This document shows positions 26,184-43,198 of a DNA stretch of 64,000 bases, piece after piece (within the stretch, counting starts at the first letter, position 1; every line of letters starts with the position of its first letter). The translations under genes and the position numbers were made by a program. A model generated the notes under the pieces. The model did not search any database. It was not told the origin of the DNA and was given only the letters and a program-made list of their open reading frames with translations. Source of the DNA: Candidatus Gottesmanbacteria bacterium (GTDB lineage Bacteria; Patescibacteriota; Microgenomatia; JAMCYU01); the NCBI GenBank assembly GCA_043801155.1, contig JAZDMI010000021.1:2683-66682 (forward strand). The letters are read 5' to 3'.

Positions 26184-27056
26184 GTGATGAGATTAACGCG
26201 GTTACAGGTGATTTCTGAACTGTTTGCCCAGTACCAGACAAAAAAAATAAACAAAGAATCTCTTCTTTCTATGGTCGATGATGTGGAAATTGCAGAGAGG
26301 GTCTACAACTCCAATGCCATAGAAAACTCGACACTCACCTTGCCCGAAACGGAAAAAATCCTGCTTCAGCTTGAAGTGAATAGGCATATATCGCTTAGAG
26401 AAGTTTTTGAGGCAAAAAATTTAGCCCAAGTCTACAACTATATTAAAAATACTGCCCCTCAAAAACCACTTTCCCTAGATATGATTTTATTACTTCATAA
26501 AATCCTGCTTACCAATATCCGTGATGAAGTTGCAGGACAGTTTCGTACGGGAAACGAAATGGTGCGGGTAGGAAATCACATCGGCATACCCTCGGAATTT
26601 ATAAGTCAAAGGATTCAAGAAATGCTCGTTCAATATAATTCAGACATGGAAATTTCCTTTATTCATAAAATTGGCCGTTTACATGCGGAGTTTGAAAGTA
26701 TTCACCCTTTTATTGACGGAAATGGCAGGATCGGACGAGTTCTTAATAACTATTTACTTATCCGTGAAGGATTTCCTCCGATTATCGTTAGAAATAAAGA
26801 TAAAGAAACTTATTATGATGCCCTGCGTTCATATGACACTTCGCATAATTTTAAACCAATGATGCGCATAGTTGAGTTAGCTGTTTTAGAATCTTTTCAT
26901 AAACGTCTGGCTTACCTTGAGGGACAGCGGATAATTCCTCTTACTGAATATGCGGCTACTCAAAAAAGATCTTTCCATACTCTTTTAAATTCAAGCCGTC
27001 GTCAAACTATTCCTGCTTTTCGCGAGAAAGGCGTCTGGAAAATCGGAGTAAAATAG
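26184..27056 (+). CDS. Fic/Doc family protein, class II-like with N-terminal inhibitory motif
   Basis: 'HPFIDGNGRIGR' Fic active-site motif; N-terminal 'SNAIEN' fits the (S/T)xxxE(G/N) autoinhibitory motif. Confidence 0.85.
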   Translation: MMRLTRLQVISELFAQYQTKKINKESLLSMVDDVEIAERVYNSNAIENSTLTLPETEKILLQLEVNRHISLREVFEAKNLAQVYNYIKNTAPQKPLSLDMILLLHKILLTNIRDEVAGQFRTGNEMVRVGNHIGIPSEFISQRIQEMLVQYNSDMEISFIHKIGRLHAEFESIHPFIDGNGRIGRVLNNYLLIREGFPPIIVRNKDKETYYDALRSYDTSHNFKPMMRIVELAVLESFHKRLAYLEGQRIIPLTEYAATQKRSFHTLLNSSRRQTIPAFREKGVWKIGVK

Positions 27057-27623: not shown

Positions 27624-29099
27624 ATGTTTGAACAATCATTTAAAAATATTGATGATATTCTTCACCGGGATGCCGGATGCGCCACGGAATTAGATTATAT
27701 AGAACAAACTTCATGGATTCTATTCTTGAAATACCTTGATGATTTAGAGGAAACAAAAAGGAAAGAAGCGGTTTTAAAAAATAGACAATATGAATATATT
27801 ATTGCTCCTGAATTTCGCTGGAGCGCTTGGGCGGAACCAAAAACGAAAGATGGCAAATTAGATATGAATAAGGCGTTAACCGGAGACGATCTAAGAGACT
27901 TTGTAAATTTAAAACTTTTTCCATATCTTAAGAAATTTAAAATCGACAATAACGAGAATCAAACAACTATTGAATATAAAATTGGAGAAATTTTCAGTGA
28001 GCTAAAAAACAGGATTGAAAGCGGATACAGACTTCGTGAAATTCTTAACATTGTAGATACGATGCATTTTCGAACCGATAGCGATAAACACGAACTCTCA
28101 CATCTTTATGAAGCTAAAATTAAGAACATGGGAAATGCCGGACGAAACGGCGGAGAATATTACACTCCTCGTCCGCTTATTAAAACGATAGTTAAGGTGG
28201 TAATCCCAAAGATTGGCGATACTATATATGATGGAGCCTGCGGATCTGCCGGATTTCTAGTAGAGTCTTTTGATTATCTTAAACAAAGTAAAGAATTATC
28301 TACCTCAGAATCCGTAAAGCTACAAAATAATACTTTTTACGGTAAGGAAATAAAATCACTTGCATATATTATCGGTGTTATGAATATGATTCTTCATGGT
28401 ATTGAAGCGCCGAATATTCTCCATACAAATACGCTTGCTCAAAACATCAATGATATCGAGGAAAAAGATCGGGTTGACGTAATCCTTACGAATCCGCCAT
28501 TTGGTGCAGGAATAGGTCGGGAAATTCAGCAAAATTTTCCGATAAAAACCGGCGAGACGGCATATCTTTTCCTCCAACACTTTATCAAAATGCTCAAAGC
28601 CGGAGGAAAAGCCGGAGTGGTGATTAAAAATACTTTTCTTTCTAATACTGATAACGCATCCGCTTCGCTTCGTAAACGTCTTCTTGAGAGTTGTAATCTT
28701 CACACCGTGCTTGATTTGCCTGGCGGCGTCTTTACGGGAGCAGGTGTAAAAACCGTGGTATTGTTTTTTGAAAAAGGCTCGCCAACCAAAAAAGTATGGT
28801 TCTATCAGTTAAACCTTGACCGCAATCTAGGCAAAGGTAATCCCTTAAGCGAAGCGGATCTATCAGAATTCGTCGAACTGCAAAAAACCAAAGCAGGTAG
28901 CAAAAATTCTTGGAGCGTAGACATAAAAGATATTAATCAAACAACATTTGATTTATCGGTAAAGAATCCAAACAAAGGGAGAGAAGTAACCCTACGCGAA
29001 CCGAAAGAGATTTTGGAGGGAATGAGGAAGCTAGACAAGGAAAGTGAAAATACATTTAAGATTATTAAAAACATATTAAATACTGGAATAAATGAATAA
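27624..29099 (+). CDS. hsdM: type I restriction-modification system, N6-adenine DNA methyltransferase subunit
   Basis: 'LTNPPFGAG' motif IV, 'YDGACGSAGFL' motif I, HsdM N-terminal domain. Confidence 0.9.
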   Translation: MFEQSFKNIDDILHRDAGCATELDYIEQTSWILFLKYLDDLEETKRKEAVLKNRQYEYIIAPEFRWSAWAEPKTKDGKLDMNKALTGDDLRDFVNLKLFPYLKKFKIDNNENQTTIEYKIGEIFSELKNRIESGYRLREILNIVDTMHFRTDSDKHELSHLYEAKIKNMGNAGRNGGEYYTPRPLIKTIVKVVIPKIGDTIYDGACGSAGFLVESFDYLKQSKELSTSESVKLQNNTFYGKEIKSLAYIIGVMNMILHGIEAPNILHTNTLAQNINDIEEKDRVDVILTNPPFGAGIGREIQQNFPIKTGETAYLFLQHFIKMLKAGGKAGVVIKNTFLSNTDNASASLRKRLLESCNLHTVLDLPGGVFTGAGVKTVVLFFEKGSPTKKVWFYQLNLDRNLGKGNPLSEADLSEFVELQKTKAGSKNSWSVDIKDINQTTFDLSVKNPNKGREVTLREPKEILEGMRKLDKESENTFKIIKNILNTGINE

Positions 29100-29730
29100 T
29101 TTATTAGCCTTGTTAGAGAAATATCAGACCCAAAATATTATCGCCGTCATAGCTTTAATATTGGCTTATTTAGCGTACAGAAAATCGGTTATTGATGAGT
29201 ATAGGAGTTGGTTGGATCTGGCAAAATCTTTCCAACACGAATTGAATTACGCAAAATATTGGATAGGAAATAGTTATGAAAAGATGATGAGTATAGATTG
29301 GTCGAATCCCTCCAGATTTGTTTATCCTCTTACCGCCGAAGCCGCGAAAGCGTTAATTTGGAAAGGACATCCGCCAAAGAGAATATTCCCAGATGATTTT
29401 TTTGATAAATTAGCTATATATAACGAACGTATTCAGGCATTTAACCATTTTTTAATGATTCAAGGAATCAATTATGTAGTGGCGGAAGTTGATAATAAAA
29501 ATGAAAAAATTTCAGAAAAAGCAAAGCATATTAATTATATCATCCATAATGATCTTATAGGTAGCCAGGATAATTATCACTTACACAATCTTTATAATTA
29601 TTTTAGTTGTCAATTGAAAATGATTGAAAAAGCAGATCTTTTGCTGATTCCATGGTATTTTAAATATCCTGAACGAATAGTTCTTGCTACTATTTTTATT
29701 TATATTATAGTTGATTATTTTATTCAGTGA
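29092..29730 (+). CDS. hypothetical membrane-associated protein embedded between hsdM and hsdS
   Basis: Start overlaps the hsdM stop and stop overlaps the hsdS start (translational coupling); N- and C-terminal hydrophobic helices; no known motif. Confidence 0.55.
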   Translation: MNNLLALLEKYQTQNIIAVIALILAYLAYRKSVIDEYRSWLDLAKSFQHELNYAKYWIGNSYEKMMSIDWSNPSRFVYPLTAEAAKALIWKGHPPKRIFPDDFFDKLAIYNERIQAFNHFLMIQGINYVVAEVDNKNEKISEKAKHINYIIHNDLIGSQDNYHLHNLYNYFSCQLKMIEKADLLLIPWYFKYPERIVLATIFIYIIVDYFIQ

Positions 29731-30884
29731 TTATGAAAACCAACTGGCAAACAAAAAAACTCGAAGATGTAGCAAATGTTCATGGTGGTGGTACTCCACC
29801 AACCAGTCACCCAGAATATTTTCAAGGAAATATAAATTGGTATTCTCCAACTGAGATACCTAAATTCGAAGTTACAACGCTCAAAGAAAGTCAGAAAAAA
29901 ATTTCCGATTCTGCAATAAAATTTACTACTATTTCAAGAACAAATTCAGTCCTTTTAACAAGCAGAGCTACAATTGGTACGGTTGGTATTTTGTCAACTG
30001 CTTCCGGATATAGTCAGGGCATAAAAGGAATCGAACCGGGTCCCGAACTAGACTCGTGGTATCTAGCGCATTGGTTGAGATCAAATAAAGATGAGATTAT
30101 TAATAAGGCTTCTGGTACAACCTTTAAGGAAATTAGTACAAGTGAAATAAAAAAGCTAGAAATTCCTATCCCTCCAATTGCTCAGCAAAAGAAAATTGTT
30201 AATTCCATAGAGAATATCTTGGGAAAAATTGAAAAGGCAAAAGAGAATACAGAGAAAAATCTGCAAAACGCCAAAGCTCTTTTTGAATCATATTTACAAA
30301 GTATTTTTGCGAATCCAGGAAAAGATTGGGAAGAGAAAAGATTAGGTGATGTTTGTATGGTCATTGCTGGTCAATCACCGGAAGGAAAATTCTATAACAA
30401 ATCGGGTAGGGGTTTACCTTTCTATCAGGGAAAAAAAGAATTTGAAGAAAGATATCTTGGGAAACCAACAACATGGACAACAGACATTACCAAAGAGGCG
30501 CAAAATGGTGATATTTTAATGTCAGTTCGAGCCCCTGTGGGACCTATTAATTTTGCAACTCAAAAAATTTGCATCGGTCGGGGTCTTACCGCAATTCGAG
30601 CCGGAAAAGATATTGATGAAAACTTTTTATTTTATAATTTACTCTCAAAAGAAAAAGAAATCATTGGTAATGCCGGAGCTGTATTTGCATCAATCAATAA
30701 ATCCGACATTGAGAGTTTAAAATTATTTTTACCATCTCTTCCCGAACAAAAATCTATTGATATAAAACTTGACACAATTTATGCCGAAACAAAAAAACTG
30801 GAAGCAATTTATAAACAAAAATTAGCTGATTTAGAAGAGCTAAAAAAATCGGTTTTGAGAAAAGCATTTAAAGGAGAATTGTAA
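29727..30884 (+). CDS. hsdS: type I R-M specificity subunit
   Basis: Two target-recognition domains separated by conserved coiled-coil repeats ('IAQQKKIV..IE..L', 'LPEQKSI...KL'). Confidence 0.85.
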   Translation: MIMKTNWQTKKLEDVANVHGGGTPPTSHPEYFQGNINWYSPTEIPKFEVTTLKESQKKISDSAIKFTTISRTNSVLLTSRATIGTVGILSTASGYSQGIKGIEPGPELDSWYLAHWLRSNKDEIINKASGTTFKEISTSEIKKLEIPIPPIAQQKKIVNSIENILGKIEKAKENTEKNLQNAKALFESYLQSIFANPGKDWEEKRLGDVCMVIAGQSPEGKFYNKSGRGLPFYQGKKEFEERYLGKPTTWTTDITKEAQNGDILMSVRAPVGPINFATQKICIGRGLTAIRAGKDIDENFLFYNLLSKEKEIIGNAGAVFASINKSDIESLKLFLPSLPEQKSIDIKLDTIYAETKKLEAIYKQKLADLEELKKSVLRKAFKGEL

Positions 30885-30886
30885 TT

Positions 30887-31606
30887 ATGAAATATATAAA
30901 AAAGCTTAATATGGTTTGTTTTAACTTACTGGAACTGAAGACGCTATATAAGACTGACAAAGTAATAAAAATTCTTATAGAAGCAAATAAAACAAGGTGT
31001 AATATCGTTAATTCATCTAAAGAACAATCTAAAAAGATCGTAGATTCAGTCGTGAAAGGAGATTTAAAACAAAAGGAGGAAATTGAAATATTCTCGGCGT
31101 TAAGCTTATGTGCCTTATTTTTCGAGAATGATAGTTTTATAGGTTTCGTTTTGAAGGACGGCTATGATGTAGGAAAAAACCCAATACAAACATTAGAAGG
31201 TTTGAAAAAGGCTGCGAAAGAAGATACTCTTACTGATTTTGCAATTATCACCAAAAGTGGAATGCGAGAATTTCAGCTAAAACAATTTTATAGACAAAAA
31301 CTGGAGACGGAAGACCTTTTTAACTTTATAAAAGAAAAAATTGAACATTATGGTGGTAATTTTGGTACCACTGCTTTGTTATTCTCGGTTAGAGGTGATG
31401 GAATAGGACCTTGTCAAAGCAATATTTCTTTTAAAGAAATTCACGAGAGGCTTTGCAAACTTAATTTAGACAGAAATGGATTAATTTTGATTTGGTATAA
31501 TGATGGCAACAAAAAACAGGTGATAATTGAAGTTTATCCTGATTTATCGGCATGCCAAAAAGAAACAGGTATTCACGATCAAACAAAAAATACCCTATAT
31601 AATTAG
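30887..31606 (+). CDS. hypothetical protein embedded between hsdS and hsdR (same position as PrrC-type genes, but no P-loop)
   Basis: 3-nt spacing from hsdS and 11 nt before hsdR; no Walker A or other recognisable motif. Confidence 0.55.
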   Translation: MKYIKKLNMVCFNLLELKTLYKTDKVIKILIEANKTRCNIVNSSKEQSKKIVDSVVKGDLKQKEEIEIFSALSLCALFFENDSFIGFVLKDGYDVGKNPIQTLEGLKKAAKEDTLTDFAIITKSGMREFQLKQFYRQKLETEDLFNFIKEKIEHYGGNFGTTALLFSVRGDGIGPCQSNISFKEIHERLCKLNLDRNGLILIWYNDGNKKQVIIEVYPDLSACQKETGIHDQTKNTLYN

Positions 31607-31617
31607 ATCTAAAAATT

Positions 31618-33972
31618 ATGAACGAAGCAGAAACACGAGCCGAATATATTGATCCAAAACTGAAAGCTAGCGGTTGGGGAGAAGTTGAGGGATCAAAAGT
31701 ATTACGGGAATATCGTATCACCGAAGGACGGATTTTGGTTGGTGGAATACGTGCTAAACCGGAAATTGCTGATTATATCCTCGTATACAAAAACCAAAAA
31801 CTGGCAATTATTGAAGCAAAGCCGGATGAATCTGCCGTTACAGAGGGTGTCGCTCAAGCAAAAGTCTACGCCCAGAAGATGCAGATTGATTATACCTACT
31901 CAACCAACGGTAAAGAAATTTATCAAATTTCCATGAAATCCGGGAAAGAAGAGATTGTAGATGCGTTTTCGACCCCGGATGAGTTATGGAAAAAAGTGTA
32001 TTCAGATCAAAATGAATGGAAAGAGAAATTTGCTTCAATTCCTCTTGAGGGAGAATTAGGGAAACGATACTACCAGGAATCAGCCATTAATAACGTTATG
32101 AATGCGATTGCTGAAGATAAGAAACGAGTGCTACTTACTATGGCAACAGGAACCGGTAAGACAGCGATTGCATTTCAGACCTCTTGGAAGCTATATCAAA
32201 CGCGTTGGACTTTACAACGTGATGGAAATCGGCGTCCGAGAATTCTTTTTCTTGCCGATAGAAATATTCTTGCGGATCAAGCGTTTAATACCTTCGGTGC
32301 TTTTCCGGAAGATGCATTAGTTCGAATTAATCCTCTTGATATTCGGAGGAAGGGATTAGTTCCGATGAACGGAAGTATCTTTTTCACTATTTTTCAAACA
32401 TTTATGAGCGGACCGCAGGGAACACCTTATTTTGGTGATTATCCTCCTGATTTTTTTGATTTTATTGTCATTGATGAATGTCATCGTGGAGGAGCTAATG
32501 ATGAGGGAAACTGGCGCGGAATTTTAGAGTATTTTTCTCCAGCAGTTCAGCTTGGATTAACGGCCACACCAAAAAGAAGAGATAACGTAGATACATATAG
32601 ATATTTTGGCGATCCGGTATATATTTATTCACTTAAGGAAGGGATTAATGATGGATTTTTGACACCTTTTAAGGTGAAACGTATCCAAACAACCCTTGAT
32701 GAATATGTGTACACATCTGACGACCAAGTAATTGAAGGAGAAGTTGAAGCCGGTAAGGTATATAAAGAGCCTGATTTTAATAAAATCATAGAAATAAAAG
32801 AGCGCGAGGCAAAACGAGTTCAATTGTTGCTTGAGAATATAAACCAGAACGAGAAAACAATTGTTTTTTGTGCAACCCAGGATCATGCCCTAGCGGTACG
32901 GGATCTGGTAAATCAATATAAAAAAAGTAAAGATCCTTTTTACTGCGTCCGGGTAACGGCTAATGACGGAGCGCGTGGCGAGCAATATTTACGAGAATTT
33001 CAGGATAATGAAAAGACGATTCCTACGATATTAACCACTTCACAAAAGCTTTCTACTGGTGTTGATGCCAGAAATATCCGTAATATCGTTCTTATGCGTC
33101 CGGTTAATACCATGATCGAATTTAAACAGATTATTGGGCGTGGAACTCGGTTATTTGACGGAAAAGAATATTTTACAATCATTGATTTTGTTGATGCGTA
33201 TAAACTTTTTTTAGATCCTGAATGGGACGGCGAACCGATAGCGAATATTTGCCCAAAGTGTAACCAGGATCCCTGTATTTGCGAAAAAACTCCGCCGAAA
33301 GTTTGTCCTATTTGCGGGCAAAGACCGTGTATTTGTATTAGAGAACCAAGAATTTGTCCAATATGTGGAAAATTCCCATGTGAATGTGAATCAAAAAAGA
33401 AAATAAAAATAAAACTGCGCGATGGCAAAGAGCGAGAGATTCAACATATGATTTCTACTTCTTTTTGGGGGGCAGATGGTAAACCGATGTCGTCGGAGGA
33501 GTTTATTCAAAGCCTTTATGGAGTATTGCCGGATCTGTTTAAAAACGAAGAGGAACTTCGGAATATATGGTCAAATCCTGTGACAAGGAAACGATTTTTG
33601 GAACGGCTTTTTGATATTGGCATTGATTTAGAACAGATAGAAAATATTACCAAGATTGTTAATGCTGAACAATGTGATTTTTATGATGTGCTCTTGTATC
33701 TTGCATTTAGCAATCCACTCATTACACGTAAACAGCGGGCTGAGAAGAATAAAAATCATATTTTTGAAAATTTGTCTGATAAAGAAGGAGAATTTCTCAA
33801 CTTCGTACTGAAAAAATATGAAGAAACCGGATTTGAAGAACTTGACGAGGAGAAATTACCAATACTTCTGAATCTAAAATACCACGCTATTGCAGACGCA
33901 GAAGAAGCACTAGGAAATGTAGAAAATATTAGAGCAACATTCTTAGGATTTCAGGAAGATCTCTATAGCTAG
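31618..33972 (+). CDS. hsdR: type I R-M restriction subunit, short form with a Cys-rich triple repeat insertion
   Basis: 'MNEAETRAEYIDPKL' HsdR N-terminus, PD-(D/E)xK 'D...IIEAK', helicase motifs 'TGTGKT', 'VIDECHRG', 'IIGRGTR'; 'CPKCNQDPCIC / CPICGQRPCIC / CPICGKFPCEC' at about 33250-33390. Confidence 0.88.
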   Translation: MNEAETRAEYIDPKLKASGWGEVEGSKVLREYRITEGRILVGGIRAKPEIADYILVYKNQKLAIIEAKPDESAVTEGVAQAKVYAQKMQIDYTYSTNGKEIYQISMKSGKEEIVDAFSTPDELWKKVYSDQNEWKEKFASIPLEGELGKRYYQESAINNVMNAIAEDKKRVLLTMATGTGKTAIAFQTSWKLYQTRWTLQRDGNRRPRILFLADRNILADQAFNTFGAFPEDALVRINPLDIRRKGLVPMNGSIFFTIFQTFMSGPQGTPYFGDYPPDFFDFIVIDECHRGGANDEGNWRGILEYFSPAVQLGLTATPKRRDNVDTYRYFGDPVYIYSLKEGINDGFLTPFKVKRIQTTLDEYVYTSDDQVIEGEVEAGKVYKEPDFNKIIEIKEREAKRVQLLLENINQNEKTIVFCATQDHALAVRDLVNQYKKSKDPFYCVRVTANDGARGEQYLREFQDNEKTIPTILTTSQKLSTGVDARNIRNIVLMRPVNTMIEFKQIIGRGTRLFDGKEYFTIIDFVDAYKLFLDPEWDGEPIANICPKCNQDPCICEKTPPKVCPICGQRPCICIREPRICPICGKFPCECESKKKIKIKLRDGKEREIQHMISTSFWGADGKPMSSEEFIQSLYGVLPDLFKNEEELRNIWSNPVTRKRFLERLFDIGIDLEQIENITKIVNAEQCDFYDVLLYLAFSNPLITRKQRAEKNKNHIFENLSDKEGEFLNFVLKKYEETGFEELDEEKLPILLNLKYHAIADAEEALGNVENIRATFLGFQEDLYS

Positions 33973-35298: not shown

Positions 35299-35814
35299 GT
35301 GGATATTGATATTAGTGGTCTTTTCAGAAAATCTTTCATTGACTCCTTACCCACCTTATTTTATTTATTAATTCCAATAATAATAATTTCAGGTCTGGTT
35401 ATTGCCATAAAAATTGGTTATTATTTTTACCGCCAGCATATCTATAATAAGGCCGGGTTGGATAAAATTGATAAAATGCCCGGTTACGTTTTTGAAGAAT
35501 ACCTTACAAATCTGTTTGCCCGGTTAGGTTACAGAGTAAATCATATTGGTAAGTTTGGAGATTTTGGGGGAGATTTAATTATCGAAAAAGATGGAATGAA
35601 AACATTAGTTCAGGCGAAAAGATCAAGTGATAGAATAAGAGAGAAAGCAATTCAGGAAGCCGTAACTGCAAAAGAGTACTACCATTGTGATAAAGCTATG
35701 GTAGTTACTAATAATTATTTTTATAAACATGCGTGGACGTTGGGCAAGGGAACAAATATAGACTTATGGGCAAGAAATAAATTGGCTGAAGTTATCTCTC
35801 AGAATATAAATTAA
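35299..35814 (+). CDS. membrane-anchored Mrr-cat (restriction endonuclease-like) domain protein, GTG start
   Basis: N-terminal TM helix; 'YVFEEYLTNLFARLGYRV...GDFGGDLIIEKDGMKTLVQAKR' matches the Mrr_cat D...(E/D)xK core. Confidence 0.6.
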   Translation: MDIDISGLFRKSFIDSLPTLFYLLIPIIIISGLVIAIKIGYYFYRQHIYNKAGLDKIDKMPGYVFEEYLTNLFARLGYRVNHIGKFGDFGGDLIIEKDGMKTLVQAKRSSDRIREKAIQEAVTAKEYYHCDKAMVVTNNYFYKHAWTLGKGTNIDLWARNKLAEVISQNIN

Positions 35815-35867: not shown

Positions 35868-36584
35868 ATGATTAAAATTAATACCACATTTATTAATACT
35901 TCTTCTGATAATTCTTCAAAAGGTTCTCCGGGGAATATACAATTTAACTTTAAATCATCATATTCTTTTAACAACAAATTATTATTTCATTTAGATTTTA
36001 AAGATCCTTCTCTCTATTTGCTATTATTTACAAATTTATCAACTATTTATTTTGCCTATATAGAACACTGGAATCTTTTAACAGTGATGTGGATATACTG
36101 GTTCCAGAGTATAATCATTGGTTTATTCACGTTTGTTAGACTAATAAACTTGCGAAATTATAATTCTCGGGCAATCTCTTTTATTATTAGTTATGGAATA
36201 TTTCATATGGGATTTCTGGTTTTTCTATTGTTAGGATTTTTAGGCAATGCTACTAGGGGAATAGTCTCTGAATTTGGTTTTGTTTTGATGTCCGCCTTTT
36301 TATTTTTCGTCAACCACTTATTTTCTTATTTTTATAATAAAGATCGTGATCAGGAAGGATTTATTTTTCACAAAGATGTAGATAGAATAATCTCGATTTC
36401 ATATATGCGTATAATACCCATGCATATAATAATTATTCTCGGGCAAATTATAACTTCAATTTTTTTATCGGAGGCAAGATACACTCTTTTTCTCTTTTTA
36501 TTTTTAAAGACTTATGCTGATTTATATTCCCATACACTTAAGCATACATCTGCTGCTTCGCCAATAGATGTAAAGAATTCTTAA
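35868..36584 (+). CDS. polytopic membrane protein, hypothetical
   Basis: At least 5 hydrophobic helices; no motif. Confidence 0.5.
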   Translation: MIKINTTFINTSSDNSSKGSPGNIQFNFKSSYSFNNKLLFHLDFKDPSLYLLLFTNLSTIYFAYIEHWNLLTVMWIYWFQSIIIGLFTFVRLINLRNYNSRAISFIISYGIFHMGFLVFLLLGFLGNATRGIVSEFGFVLMSAFLFFVNHLFSYFYNKDRDQEGFIFHKDVDRIISISYMRIIPMHIIIILGQIITSIFLSEARYTLFLFLFLKTYADLYSHTLKHTSAASPIDVKNS

Positions 36585-36646: not shown

Positions 36647-37519
36647 ATGACTTTTAATCCAAATGCTGTTTTCATTTCTCCTTCATCCATCTCTGATTTT
36701 AAAACATGTCCACAAACTTATTATTATCGGAATGTCTATAGAAATCCGAAGACTGGATTAAAAATACAAATAATTAATCCAAAACTAGCGCTTGGTGCAA
36801 CAGTGCATGATATATTAGCTCAATTCCTACACACCCAGGGAATAGAAAAAACTAAAGATCAATTACTCAATATCCTTCAGAGATATTGGGGACAGATTAC
36901 TGGTGAAAAAGGAGGATTTAAAACAGAAGAGGAAGAAAAACAATACAAAGAAAGGGCATCAAAAATGTTGGATATTTTTTGGGGAAATAACCATTTTAGG
37001 GAGGTACAACCGGTAAAACTACCCGATTTCCCAAAGGTATATTTTGATGACGATTTAATTCTCACTGGAAAACTTGACTGGATTGAGCTAGAGACAGAAA
37101 ATAAATATCACATCATTGACTTTAAAACTGGAGAAAACGAAGAACGAAGCGATTCTATGCAATTACCTATTTATGCCGTTCTTGCTTCAAATATTTTAAA
37201 AACCTCTGAAATAAAAGCAAGCTATTGGTATCTTGATAGAGATGCCGACTTGAAAAAATTCGATCTGCCCGATTTAAAAGAAACAACAGAAAAACTTAAA
37301 AAAATTGGTTATGTAATTAAAAATAGTCGGTTAACAAATTCTTTTAAATGCAGTTCGGGATACGAGTCGTGTTGGTCTTGTAAAGATTTGCTATCCATTA
37401 GCAATGGAAAGGGTAAACTTGTTTCTGTTGATTACAATCGTAAACAAGAAGTTTATATAATTCCTCCAACAGAAGATAAGCCTATATTAGAAAAACCTAT
37501 TGATGACATTCCTTTCTAA
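36647..37519 (+). CDS. PD-(D/E)XK nuclease, Cas4/AddB-like with predicted Fe-S cluster cysteines
   Basis: N-terminal 'SPSSISDFKTCPQTYYY' (first Cys), 'DWIELETENKYHIIDFKTG' D...E.K catalytic core, C-terminal 'CSSGYESCWSC' Cys triad. Confidence 0.6.
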   Translation: MTFNPNAVFISPSSISDFKTCPQTYYYRNVYRNPKTGLKIQIINPKLALGATVHDILAQFLHTQGIEKTKDQLLNILQRYWGQITGEKGGFKTEEEEKQYKERASKMLDIFWGNNHFREVQPVKLPDFPKVYFDDDLILTGKLDWIELETENKYHIIDFKTGENEERSDSMQLPIYAVLASNILKTSEIKASYWYLDRDADLKKFDLPDLKETTEKLKKIGYVIKNSRLTNSFKCSSGYESCWSCKDLLSISNGKGKLVSVDYNRKQEVYIIPPTEDKPILEKPIDDIPF

Positions 37520-38971: not shown

Positions 38972-39277
38972 ATGAGAACACGGGCAGAAATTGAAAATAG
39001 GCCATCTTCCGGATCTAAATTAATAATTTGGAACAATGGACAGGGAAATTATTATGACTTTTTTAATTGTGGTGGAGAAAAAATACCAATAGAGGAGACT
39101 CTTGGGGGAGAACTATGTTTGCTTTGCGGGGTTGTTAGAGAACAACTAAAAAAGAATAACATCACCGGTTGTTTTACAATTTTTTCGTCCGACCTTCTTC
39201 CTGGTTCCAAAATTCAAGCAGCCACTAAAAAAGATTCAAAAGTAGCAGGAGTTCCCCTGATTCTTAAAATCTCCTAA
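38972..39277 (+). CDS. hypothetical protein
   Basis: Preceded by the hairpin CCCGTAC..GTACGGG plus a promoter-like element at 38903. Confidence 0.4.
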   Translation: MRTRAEIENRPSSGSKLIIWNNGQGNYYDFFNCGGEKIPIEETLGGELCLLCGVVREQLKKNNITGCFTIFSSDLLPGSKIQAATKKDSKVAGVPLILKIS

Positions 39278-39378: not shown

Positions 39379-41463
39379 CTAGTAAATTTTTGACCGGTAA
39401 TCAACAATCATTATTTCCAACTTACCCTCATCTCTCATTTTAAGTAAGACCCTTCCGCCGGAATGAATATGAGGTAGGGGAACTCTTAAACGATAAACCC
39501 CATCTGAATCCTCGATTTTAACAAGATGAGGATCTAAAATTTGCTGGCGTTTATTAAAATTAATAATAGCTTGTTGAACAAAACCTCTTTCTTCTGTAGA
39601 AAATCCTTTCATTAAAAGTTCCAGTTCTTCAGACGTCGGTTCGATGATCGTTAGTTTTCCGGTTAAAGCCTGTTCTTCTTCGGTGACTGGTTTTTCTTCA
39701 CCATCTTTTTTAATAGTTTCCCTTGTTTCTTCAACTCTTATCTGCCTTCTTAATTCATAGGTAACATCATGAAAATGCACTTTTGGCAGCGATGACTTGA
39801 GTGGTTCTTGATTACCGTCCTTAAGAGTGTTTTTTAATTTTTGATGTTCCAGATAATCCGCTAAGTGCGTTAAGGTTTTCAGTACAATTTCCTGGCAACC
39901 TTGTTTGTAGATATGGTTATTGGATTCATTGATCGAATCAAGAACCATCCAGTCAAAAGTCTCTTTTGTCGCATCGATGCTTAAGAGAAGAAAAATTTCC
40001 TCATCTTCTTCACTTGTTTTATCTATAAACTCAAATGCCATACCAAATTTACGGGGATGATAAGGATCTGCTATGAGAGAAGCAGCGTCAGGTTTTTTTA
40101 AAAATTGTAAATTATTTGGTAATTGATCAGCATCTAAACTAAATTTTCTTTCCTTGTTAGTCTTAGTAATTCTGTCTATCTGTCTCTTGACCTCTTGCCA
40201 ATTAAAATCATTATCTGTTTCGGATATTTCTTCATTCGCTAAAATGTCTTTTAATTCTTCACCGCTAAGGACTATTTGTGCCAGTCTCATTTTTTTCCGG
40301 TAGTTTTCGATATTTTCAACTAGCTTCTTATAAAAAGGAATACTCGTTTCCTTTTTAACCAAATTTGTAGCTGCACGGTAGAATCCAATCGTTTGTATGG
40401 CAGAATTAAAGCCAAGGAGTAAAAATAAATATCGGCGATGATAAGTATTTTCGTCCTGGAGGTATTTCTCAAAAAGATTGATAAGTTCCATATCAGGTTG
40501 GCCATCTTTAGGAAAAAGACGCCTAAAGACTTCTTTTCTTAGCAGGGACAATTTATCTACCAGCTCTACTGCTTTTTCTACAATTTCAGTTGCTGGCTGA
40601 CTATTGGACCTAACTGCTTCTTGAATGTCTGTTTTAGAGATATCTGCCTTGAGGAATTGTGCTACTCTAACGCTAAATTGTGCAAAATCTCCCTCAATTG
40701 CCAAAGGATAATATTTAAGTAAAGGATTCCGGCTGATTTGTTCAGCAATAATATGTTCAGGTAGTTCTTCAAACGGTTCAATAGCTGATGACTCTACAAA
40801 TAAACGGACAAAAGGTACTAAGGATTCACGATCTTTATTAGAAAAGTTCATAAATTCAATTAATGAAGCTCCTTGAATAGAAAAATTAGTATGAGTTGAA
40901 TATTGATAATCGGAAAGAGTAAAGAAGTCTTCAGCCCCTTGATAAAAATTTCTCGTCTGGGCGAATCGTTTTAGTGAATTAATCTTTCCATGGCAATATA
41001 AAGAGAGCCCGAAATCCAATGCAAACTTGATACCTCTTATTTTACAATTTTTCCAGGATAATTCGGTGTCCTCGTTTAAAGACGAAGCTGGTTCGCCATC
41101 GGGAACTTTTTCCAGAAAACCATAGGCATTTTGCATATCATCTTGGATTTGTATTAGCTTTTTACTCCAGTCTTCAGTTGTTTCCCATCCGAAAGGGTTA
41201 ACTGTATCAGTTAAAGACTTAATATTATTTCCAAATTCATTTTTTTGCTTCATGGCTCGTATCAAATATTCTAGATAAGTAGGAACTTTCTTTTTCATAT
41301 CGTCTGTAAATACCTGATCCATATTTTTAAATAAATCTGATTCTAAAAGTGATTCAACGGTAGGCAAGTTAGTAGAATCCTGGTCTTCCGCCTTATCCAG
41401 GAGGTAGCCTTTAAGTGCGTTATCTGGGCCTTCAATATAATCTATTTCAAACTTAGCTGACAT
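39379..41463 (-). CDS. large (694 aa) hypothetical protein with C-terminal RelE/ParE-like toxin-fold domain
   Basis: C-terminus 'GVYRLRVPLPHIHSGGRVLLKMRDEGKLEIMIVDYRSKIY' aligns to the RelE core 'CYKIKLRSSGYRLVYQVIDEKVVVFVISVGKRERSEVY'; about 600 N-terminal residues without a known motif. Confidence 0.5.
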   Translation of the reverse strand: MSAKFEIDYIEGPDNALKGYLLDKAEDQDSTNLPTVESLLESDLFKNMDQVFTDDMKKKVPTYLEYLIRAMKQKNEFGNNIKSLTDTVNPFGWETTEDWSKKLIQIQDDMQNAYGFLEKVPDGEPASSLNEDTELSWKNCKIRGIKFALDFGLSLYCHGKINSLKRFAQTRNFYQGAEDFFTLSDYQYSTHTNFSIQGASLIEFMNFSNKDRESLVPFVRLFVESSAIEPFEELPEHIIAEQISRNPLLKYYPLAIEGDFAQFSVRVAQFLKADISKTDIQEAVRSNSQPATEIVEKAVELVDKLSLLRKEVFRRLFPKDGQPDMELINLFEKYLQDENTYHRRYLFLLLGFNSAIQTIGFYRAATNLVKKETSIPFYKKLVENIENYRKKMRLAQIVLSGEELKDILANEEISETDNDFNWQEVKRQIDRITKTNKERKFSLDADQLPNNLQFLKKPDAASLIADPYHPRKFGMAFEFIDKTSEEDEEIFLLLSIDATKETFDWMVLDSINESNNHIYKQGCQEIVLKTLTHLADYLEHQKLKNTLKDGNQEPLKSSLPKVHFHDVTYELRRQIRVEETRETIKKDGEEKPVTEEEQALTGKLTIIEPTSEELELLMKGFSTEERGFVQQAIINFNKRQQILDPHLVKIEDSDGVYRLRVPLPHIHSGGRVLLKMRDEGKLEIMIVDYRSKIY

Positions 41464-41576
41464 TTTTTTATTTTATCATATTTATTTCGTTTTCCTTTAT
41501 AGTAAAGAATAAACCTATACTTTTGCATTTTCTTTTCTTCAATATTTCCAATAATAATGATAAAATAAACAACAAT

Positions 41577-41843
41577 ATGGTGCGGATAGAAAGTAAGTGT
41601 CTGCCCGACGGGAAAATGTTGAATATTCAATATCAGACGTCAGAAGGGCTTACAAATTTTTTTAACATCCTTTTATGTGCTGCCAGTAGAATTCCCAAAG
41701 GGAGTCCAATATATCCTCAAGCACAAATAGTTTTACAACAAATACAAGCTTTTTCTGAAGGTTCGGATGAGCCGTTTGATGGAATTGCCATAGCCAAGGT
41801 TTTAAAATCTGCTAAGTCAATTAGACCCCCAAAACAAAATTAA
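41577..41843 (+). CDS. hypothetical small protein
   Basis: Internal ATG 41577 chosen over the track start 41523, which lies inside the promoter-like element. Confidence 0.35.
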   Translation: MVRIESKCLPDGKMLNIQYQTSEGLTNFFNILLCAASRIPKGSPIYPQAQIVLQQIQAFSEGSDEPFDGIAIAKVLKSAKSIRPPKQN

Positions 41844-42454: not shown

Positions 42455-43198
42455 ATGAATAATTCTAAAAAAATTAAGGATATTGTAAAAAATTCTTACG
42501 CAGAAATTGCTAAAGCCTCTGATAGTTGTGGGTGCAGTTGTGGTTGTAGTTCTAACCAGACTGTTCAACGCCAAACACAACAAATAGGTTATTCCCCGGA
42601 AGAAATTAATCAAGCGCCTTCCGGTTCTAATCTTGGGCTTGGATGTGGCAACCCGGTGGCAATTGCTTCATTAAAAGAAGGGGAAATAGTTTTGGATTTA
42701 GGTTCCGGCGCAGGATTTGATGCTTTTTTAGCAGCGCAAAAGGTTGGGACAACGGGTAAAGTCATTGGTGTTGATATGACTGAGGAAATGCTTGTCAAAG
42801 CACGAGCTAACGCTATAAAAGGTGGTTTTACCAACGTTGAGTTCAGAGAAGGAGATATTGAAAATTTGCCCTTAGATGACAACTCGGTTGATGTTGTTAT
42901 TTCTAATTGCGTTATCAACCTTAGCCCGGATAAAGAAAAAGTATTTAAGGGAATTTATCGGGTACTTAAACCAGGTGGAAGACTCATGGTATCTGATACT
43001 GTACTTTCAAAACCATTACCGGATGAACTGCGGGAAAATGAAGAATTATTAACCGGATGTGTAAGTGGAGCTATCCTTAAAAAGGATTACCTGTCATTAC
43101 TCCAAAAAACAGGCTTTTCCAATATAAAAATACAAAAAGAAAGACCGGGGTTTCTTGCAGACTACAGTATAAGTATTACCTACTCAGCAGTCAAATAA
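42455..43198 (+). CDS. SAM-dependent methyltransferase, ArsM-like (arsenite methyltransferase family)
   Basis: '[11 protein letters not shown]' SAM motif I, '[11 protein letters not shown]' motif, N-terminal Cys cluster 'CGCSCGCS'. Confidence 0.65.

Follow-up and report, generated by a model that had tools for sequence, protein, structure and literature searches.

RelE/ParE toxins are textbook two-gene addiction and defence modules, and the locus described here raises the question of what a RelE-type domain might do as the tail of a far larger protein with no partner gene. The gene concerned lies in a 64,000-nucleotide stretch of a Candidatus Gottesmanbacteria genome (contig JAZDMI010000021.1, positions 2,683 to 66,682; hereafter, the window), where it forms a complete open reading frame (ORF) at 39379..41463 on the minus strand, with an ATG start and a stop codon at 39379-39381. 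Its 694-residue product, which ends in …VDYRSKIY, is a 100% match to the NCBI entry 'hypothetical protein V1858_02890', from a 272-kb contig of a Candidatus Gottesmanbacteria metagenome-assembled genome (MAG). We infer, at a probability of roughly 0.45, that a single chain here combines a ribosome-directed RNase of the RelE type with a large N-terminal body, to which a linker tethers the RNase and by which it is restrained in cis. The steps that lead to this reading, as well as the observations that speak against it, are set out below.

Family and domain architecture

The query protein is a member of an unannotated family of ∼650-700 residues that is restricted to the candidate phyla radiation (CPR; Microgenomates/Patescibacteria) and predicted to be cytoplasmic. 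When 1.84 billion cluster representatives were searched exhaustively with phmmer at a cut-off of E<1e-3, 60 proteins were returned (11 of them at E<1e-10), a count that takes in the query itself and one probable low-complexity match. Nearly all of these relatives are 640-700 residues long, share 20-28% identity with the query, and are colinear with it, many of them being aligned to the last residue. The two-part architecture, namely an N-terminal body followed by a RelE-fold C-terminus, is constant across the family; the fusion pointed out in a preliminary description of the window is thus no one-off but a recurrent arrangement in a conserved family. In a full-length alignment of 54 members (A1), conservation climbs from the N- to the C-terminus: the first 140 residues show little conservation and are missing from many members, and the last 90 residues form the best conserved block. 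Members with a named source belong to Microgenomates, Daviesbacteria, and the 'Patescibacteria group', with one outlier. The latter (P0026, locus L011) is a divergent protein of 683 residues that lacks the conserved R690 and was found in a MAG labelled Weeksellaceae (Bacteroidota), which reflects either misbinning or a rare case outside the CPR.

Other searches added little to this picture. In a separate homolog search, the query sequence retrieved only itself, the full-length profile likewise retrieved only the query, and the C-terminal domain profile retrieved nothing; a scan of a genome contig collection found one locus only; a scan of viral contigs (IMG/VR) found no family member; and a fold search of BFVD gave nothing informative. 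The whole 694-residue protein matched nothing significantly in Pfam, NCBIfam, PADLOC, PHROGs, or the PDB sequences, and its best Pfam match (HMD, E=0.076) was taken as noise.

The N-terminal body spans residues 1-573 (39745..41463, minus strand), of which residues ∼150-573 are conserved family-wide. It is joined to the C-terminal domain by a polar, poorly conserved linker at residues ∼574-602 (39658..39744, minus strand), which across the family measures 21-37 residues (median, 32) and consists to 69% of D, E, K, R, S, T, Q, N, G, or P. The body is acidic, with a family median isoelectric point (pI) of 5.8, and carries two conserved acidic patches, at around residues 391-420 and 481-510. Its conserved positions (P253, Y362-R363, F377-Y378, P458, P470, D497, D504-W505, L531, and Y569..R572) are chiefly proline, aromatic, and a few charged residues, and among them we recognized no catalytic, nucleotide-binding, transmembrane, or signal motif. 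In the five libraries named above, the body of the query had no detectable homolog, and no other member gave a consistent match in Pfam, NCBIfam, or PADLOC; moreover, the full-length family profile found nothing among the PDB sequences. The preliminary description, which had called this region uncharacterized, is borne out in this respect. Further, Pfam revealed no antitoxin domain (HTH/XRE, RHH, Phd/YefM, ParD, or MqsA) in the query or in the 54 members, and an antitoxin-like region of a novel kind could conceivably lie within the body.

The C-terminal domain

A predicted structure, its comparison with known folds, and an alignment of 51 C-terminal domains (A2) together place a RelE/ParE-fold (BECR) domain at residues 603-694 (39382..39657, minus strand). 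AlphaFold2, supplied with alignment A2, modelled these residues with a predicted local distance difference test score (pLDDT) of 93.0 and a predicted template modelling score (pTM) of 0.83, all five models scoring at least 91.5 in pLDDT. The strands and helices of the model run beta-alpha-alpha-beta-beta-beta-beta, with a short helix at the end, and the hairpin formed by the two consecutive helices is short (7 and 16 residues). The model contains the elements that define the RelE/ParE superfamily fold: (i) an N-terminal strand, (ii) a two-helix hairpin, and (iii) a three- to four-stranded antiparallel sheet. Structure prediction had been named in the preliminary description, before it was carried out, as the test of a C-terminal RelE/ParE fold, and that claim is upheld. 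In the fold comparison, the modelled domain scored highest with Thermus thermophilus RelE (9.8), followed by Mycobacterium tuberculosis RelE1 (8.5), Escherichia coli HigB (8.4), Methanocaldococcus jannaschii RelE3 (8.4), YafQ (7.8), Pyrococcus horikoshii aRelE (7.5), YoeB (7.3), PrpT (7.3), ParE1 (7.2), and the CARF-RelE fusion Cami1 (6.2). The RelE, HigB, YafQ, and YoeB structures thus rank ahead of every ParE.

At the sequence level, the resemblance is in register and falls short of significance. The query and E. coli RelE (EcRelE) gave a BLASTP match of E=4.1 on a different segment, and a Smith-Waterman alignment of the query with EcRelE, which recovered the register proposed in the preliminary description, scored 30, a value reached by 442 of 2000 shuffled sequences. 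No Pfam model of the RelE/ParE clan matched the query, whole or as the isolated C-terminus, even at E<=10. Among its relatives, ParE_toxin (PF05016) matched two of the 54 full-length members and three of the 51 isolated domains (best E=0.0025, below the gathering threshold) and was the only Pfam family matched by several members, with Gp49 and ParE_like appearing once each. Among the PDB sequences, no RelE/ParE chain was found, whether the search started from the query, from its C-terminus, or from either the C-terminal or the full-length profile; the best match, of the A2 profile to the dsRBD-like N-terminal domain of the mitochondrial ribosomal protein uS5 (E=0.11), was considered noise and set aside. 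For profile-profile comparison, the reference sequences of the RelE superfamily were checked against PDB chains beforehand. The best single reference in hhalign was P. horikoshii aRelE, which aligned with A2 at E=0.0067 in the expected register; EcRelE aligned in the same register at a non-significant level, and a crude alignment of six RelE-superfamily toxins gave a probability of 0.14%. The position-by-position alignment with RelE claimed earlier therefore holds as to its register, which both the optimal local alignment and hhalign reproduce, and fails as to its pairwise statistics. Since sequence methods fall short of significance, homology to RelE/ParE rests on the predicted structure, which makes it very probable that the C-terminal ∼90 residues represent a RelE-type member of the RelE/ParE (BECR) superfamily. 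The family consensus (…FN..G.G.F..L….G…Y.LR…G.RVLL.E….F.I.DI.YRKDIYR) lies much nearer to the RelE/ParE signature than the sequence of the query itself does, as illustrated by the C-terminus of one of the compact members, GNYRLRIGDFRVILRKNNGEYEIVLIGNRQHIY.

We next consider the individual positions of the domain, whose mapping onto RelE comes from alignments that are in register and statistically non-significant. R671, conserved in all 51 domains, aligns in hhalign with R61 of EcRelE and R65 of aRelE, and R690 (47/51) aligns with R83 of EcRelE and R85 of aRelE. Position 694, the last residue of the query, is aromatic in 50 of the 51 domains (Tyr in 36, Phe in 13, and Trp in 1) and corresponds in hhalign to Y87 of EcRelE and Y89 of aRelE. 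The C-terminal Arg and Tyr singled out in the preliminary description are therefore in the hhalign register with R83 and Y87 of RelE and conserved across the family. Position 660 holds an Arg or Lys in 40 of 51 domains (R660 in the query) and would match K54 of EcRelE in the register of that description. In addition, N637 at the end of helix 2 is a family-specific invariant (51/51), and the position of Y657 is aromatic in 50 of 51. The domain is basic in 46 of the 51 members, with a median pI of 9.66, which is in line with an RNA- or ribosome-binding RelE.

Of all relatives, P0048 (locus L022, 2-640 and 745-1032) comes closest to the C-terminal domain of the query: this 95-residue protein is 38% identical to that domain and has the PLP..GG insertion in common with it. 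A stop codon lies 28 codons upstream of its Met. We considered and rejected this gene as a free-standing toxin, since the gene just before it encodes an IS630-type transposase, whose element has probably cut a family gene short and left this fragment.

Genomic neighbourhoods

Genomic context was examined at 17 loci, comprising nine neighbourhoods from gene look-ups together with metagenome loci, and every ORF of at least 35-40 residues within 2.5-3 kb of the family gene was compared by all-against-all BLAST. The family gene is usually solitary, with its own upstream gap, and the genes around it have mostly housekeeping functions: rpmG (twice), rpmB, pheST, def-fmt, sodA, and a dsbA-like gene (three times), as well as dnaA-dnaN, which lies directly downstream of it in two loci (L004 and L005). 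The BLAST comparison showed only local synteny (rpmG, the dsbA-like gene, and others), which is residual between distant members, and yielded no shared small partner or antitoxin candidate across the 17 loci. An adjacent, co-transcribed cognate antitoxin gene, by which type II toxin-antitoxin systems are defined, was accordingly found at none of them, and the earlier statement that no cognate antitoxin gene is apparent extends to the family. The query gene itself comes after DegV in the window and has EngB and Obg for neighbours. The small ORFs on either side of it (38972..39277 and ∼41523..41843), which had been put forward as possible neutralizing genes, are on the opposite strand, match no family, and have no counterpart beside the homologs, and we no longer regard them as candidates. 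Further along in the window, at 42455-43198, is a gene whose product, a SAM-dependent methyltransferase rich in Cys at its N-terminus (CGCSCGCSS), seems to resemble arsenite methyltransferase (ArsM).

Two loci have toxin-antitoxin pairs just upstream of the family gene. In L002 (7155-7786), a 78-residue ORF and a PIN-domain gene, resembling a VapBC pair, immediately precede it on the same strand; in one lineage, represented by L004 (7278-11499) and L005 (2531-6752), the family gene sits between a BrnT/CopG pair and dnaA-dnaN in the region of the replication origin, where rnpA, yidC, and jag are also located. Since the ORF/PIN and BrnT/CopG pairs of L002 and L004 are unrelated to each other, their presence is probably incidental.

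The window itself does contain a defence-type cluster (∼26-37.5 kb), as the preliminary description had noted. Its members are a Fic/DOC gene (26184-27056); a type I restriction-modification system of HsdM (27624-29099), HsdS (29727-30884), and HsdR (31618-33972), with unannotated ORFs at 29092-29730 and 30887-31606; an Mrr-type nuclease (Mrr_cat) with an N-terminal transmembrane segment (35299-35814); a DUF6498 membrane protein (35868-36584); and a PD-(D/E)XK/Cas4-like nuclease (36647-37519). The family as a whole shows no link to defence islands. No cas gene was present in any look-up neighbourhood, and no family member had a convincing PADLOC match. The defence framing given to the query is thus unsupported by the family, because its homologs occupy housekeeping neighbourhoods with residual synteny, have no convincing PADLOC match, and occur on no viral contig searched.

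Competing readings and biological meaning

In the reading that we favour, the C-terminal domain would act in the manner of RelE, HigB, or YoeB: it would enter the A site of the ribosome and there cleave mRNA, or at least clamp it. The acidic N-terminal body would hold this domain in check in cis, as an antitoxin and/or a sensor, until some signal released the linker-tethered domain from it. We propose such restraint because there is no separate antitoxin gene, and cis-inhibition by the body is pure conjecture on our part. The sensor-coupled RNase envisaged in the preliminary description would be a viable candidate. Further, the vertical, housekeeping-type genomic setting suggests a lineage-specific translation regulator, serving in stress or dormancy shut-off or in mRNA/ribosome quality control. 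We read the family as neither a toxin-antitoxin module of the classical type nor a mobile addiction module, and as neither a polymorphic toxin nor a conserved gene of defence islands.

Several observations weigh against this reading. RelE/ParE membership is significant by no sequence method; the positions that match K52 and R81 of EcRelE (658 and 688, respectively) vary; and 13 of the 51 members have Phe in place of Tyr at position 694. In the query itself, the domain is near neutral (pI 7.0, against the family median of 9.66) and carries an unusual eight-residue insertion (PLPHIHSG) between strands. Because of these last two features, the query's copy may be attenuated or differently regulated. 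Moreover, an appendage of ∼600 residues may obstruct entry into the A site, and the full-length, single-sequence AlphaFold2 model, with a pLDDT of 34, is unusable for the N-terminal body.

Some of the same observations would suit a RelE fold that is catalytically inert and serves as an RNA-, ribosome-, or protein-docking module, with the N-terminal body holding the activity or a scaffold role. Such a protein would sit well in a single-gene, vertically inherited housekeeping setting (rpmG, rpmB, pheST, dnaA-dnaN, and def-fmt); its lack of toxicity would most easily explain the absence of an antitoxin; and the unconserved K52 and R81 equivalents, the alternation of Tyr and Phe at position 694, and the non-basic domain of the query all agree with it. 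However, the invariant R671, the near-invariant R690, and the aromatic residue 694 fall exactly at RelE active-site positions, the N-terminal body is likewise devoid of a catalytic-type conserved motif, and catalytic residues vary widely among active RNases of the RelE superfamily, so that we consider inert docking rather unlikely, if the most serious competitor to a cis-restrained RNase. A ParE-like domain that poisons DNA gyrase instead of the ribosome is much harder to sustain: the RelE, HigB, YafQ, and YoeB structures outrank all ParE structures, the helical hairpin is short, the Arg...Arg...Tyr positions of RelE type are conserved, and PF05016 itself combines RelE-like mRNases with ParE (PMC11980606). 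We therefore think gyrase poisoning very improbable.

Two further readings would make the protein a weapon. As a phage-defence (abortive-infection) effector, comparable to Cami1, PtuZ, or the fused toxin-antitoxin proteins, it would sense infection through the N-terminal body and unleash the RelE RNase. The Fic, type I restriction-modification, Mrr, and PD-(D/E)XK genes at a distance of 2-13 kb in the window, the toxin-antitoxin pairs directly upstream of two homologs, and the documented existence of multidomain RelE-fold defence proteins (PMC11980606; Cami1) are consistent with this. Nevertheless, neighbours that are mostly housekeeping, with residual synteny, at the 17 loci are unlike the patchy islands in which defence genes occur, PADLOC recognizes no member convincingly, and the architecture is constant instead of modular; on balance, a defence function is improbable. 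The idea of a polymorphic or secreted toxin armed with a RelE-like warhead at its C-terminus, another suggestion of the preliminary description, has for precedent the BECR-fold domains known at CdiA-type toxin C-termini, one of which (CdiA-CT, 6cp9) is a weak entry among our fold matches. It is rejected here because conservation peaks in the C-terminal domain, which would be the variable part of such a toxin, because there is no signal, transmembrane segment, or known trafficking domain, and because no conserved same-strand immunity gene lies downstream at the loci examined; the conservation pattern by itself leaves it with next to no credibility.

Proteins of this general kind, that is, multidomain RelE/ParE-fold proteins, are already known. 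RelE, aRelE, HigB, YafQ, and YoeB are standalone proteins of ∼85-100 residues encoded alongside an antitoxin, whereas here the fold forms the C-terminus of a partnerless protein of ∼650-700 residues. The family further differs from RelE-type mRNA interferases in a sequence similarity below every curated threshold and in its unconserved K52 and R81 equivalents. Cami1 (PDB 8phb), a CARF-RelE fusion and an ancillary effector of type III CRISPR systems, was found among the fold matches; unlike it, the family has no CARF domain detected by Pfam and no CRISPR context, and its N-terminal body, roughly threefold the size, bears no sequence relationship to that of Cami1. CdiA-CT of Klebsiella pneumoniae 342 (PDB 6cp9) likewise belongs to a large protein with a C-terminal BECR-type domain. 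Gerdes 2025 (PMC11980606) described multidomain BECR-fold toxins and antitoxin-toxin fusions, including PtuZ and ToxM, and left many multidomain proteins without an identifiable antitoxin unanalysed. Our family resembles these in having a RelE/ParE-fold domain inside a larger protein, but it has no detectable PIN-like domain with a ptuXY operon, no detectable transmembrane domain, and no detectable HTH, RHH, YefM, or ParD antitoxin domain, and it is invisible to the Pfam models from which that study started. Cami1 and the multidomain BECR toxins are precedents for cis or allosteric control of RelE-fold domains. The family appears to be undescribed in several respects: the N-terminal body, the housekeeping-type setting, the confinement to the CPR, and the failure of curated models to detect it.

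The significance of the family lies in a RelE fold that is hard-wired to an uncharacterized body of ∼570 residues, free of an antitoxin, and inherited alongside housekeeping genes in CPR bacteria. It represents a conserved RelE lineage entirely missed by curated profile libraries, and its N-terminal body is a large new protein domain to characterize. The family would provide a natural example of cis-controlled RelE activity and would hint at how genome-reduced symbionts regulate translation. A bolder and more doubtful idea is that the RelE domain has been domesticated, by permanent tethering to a new regulatory body, into a chromosomally fixed translation factor of Microgenomates, which would carry out programmed, self-limited mRNA cleavage or ribosome arrest, possibly in the control of dormancy or host dependence in these ultra-small symbionts. 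If this were true, the ∼570-residue body would be a new fold or sensor, and the RelE fold would here be part of core physiology and not a selfish or defence element.
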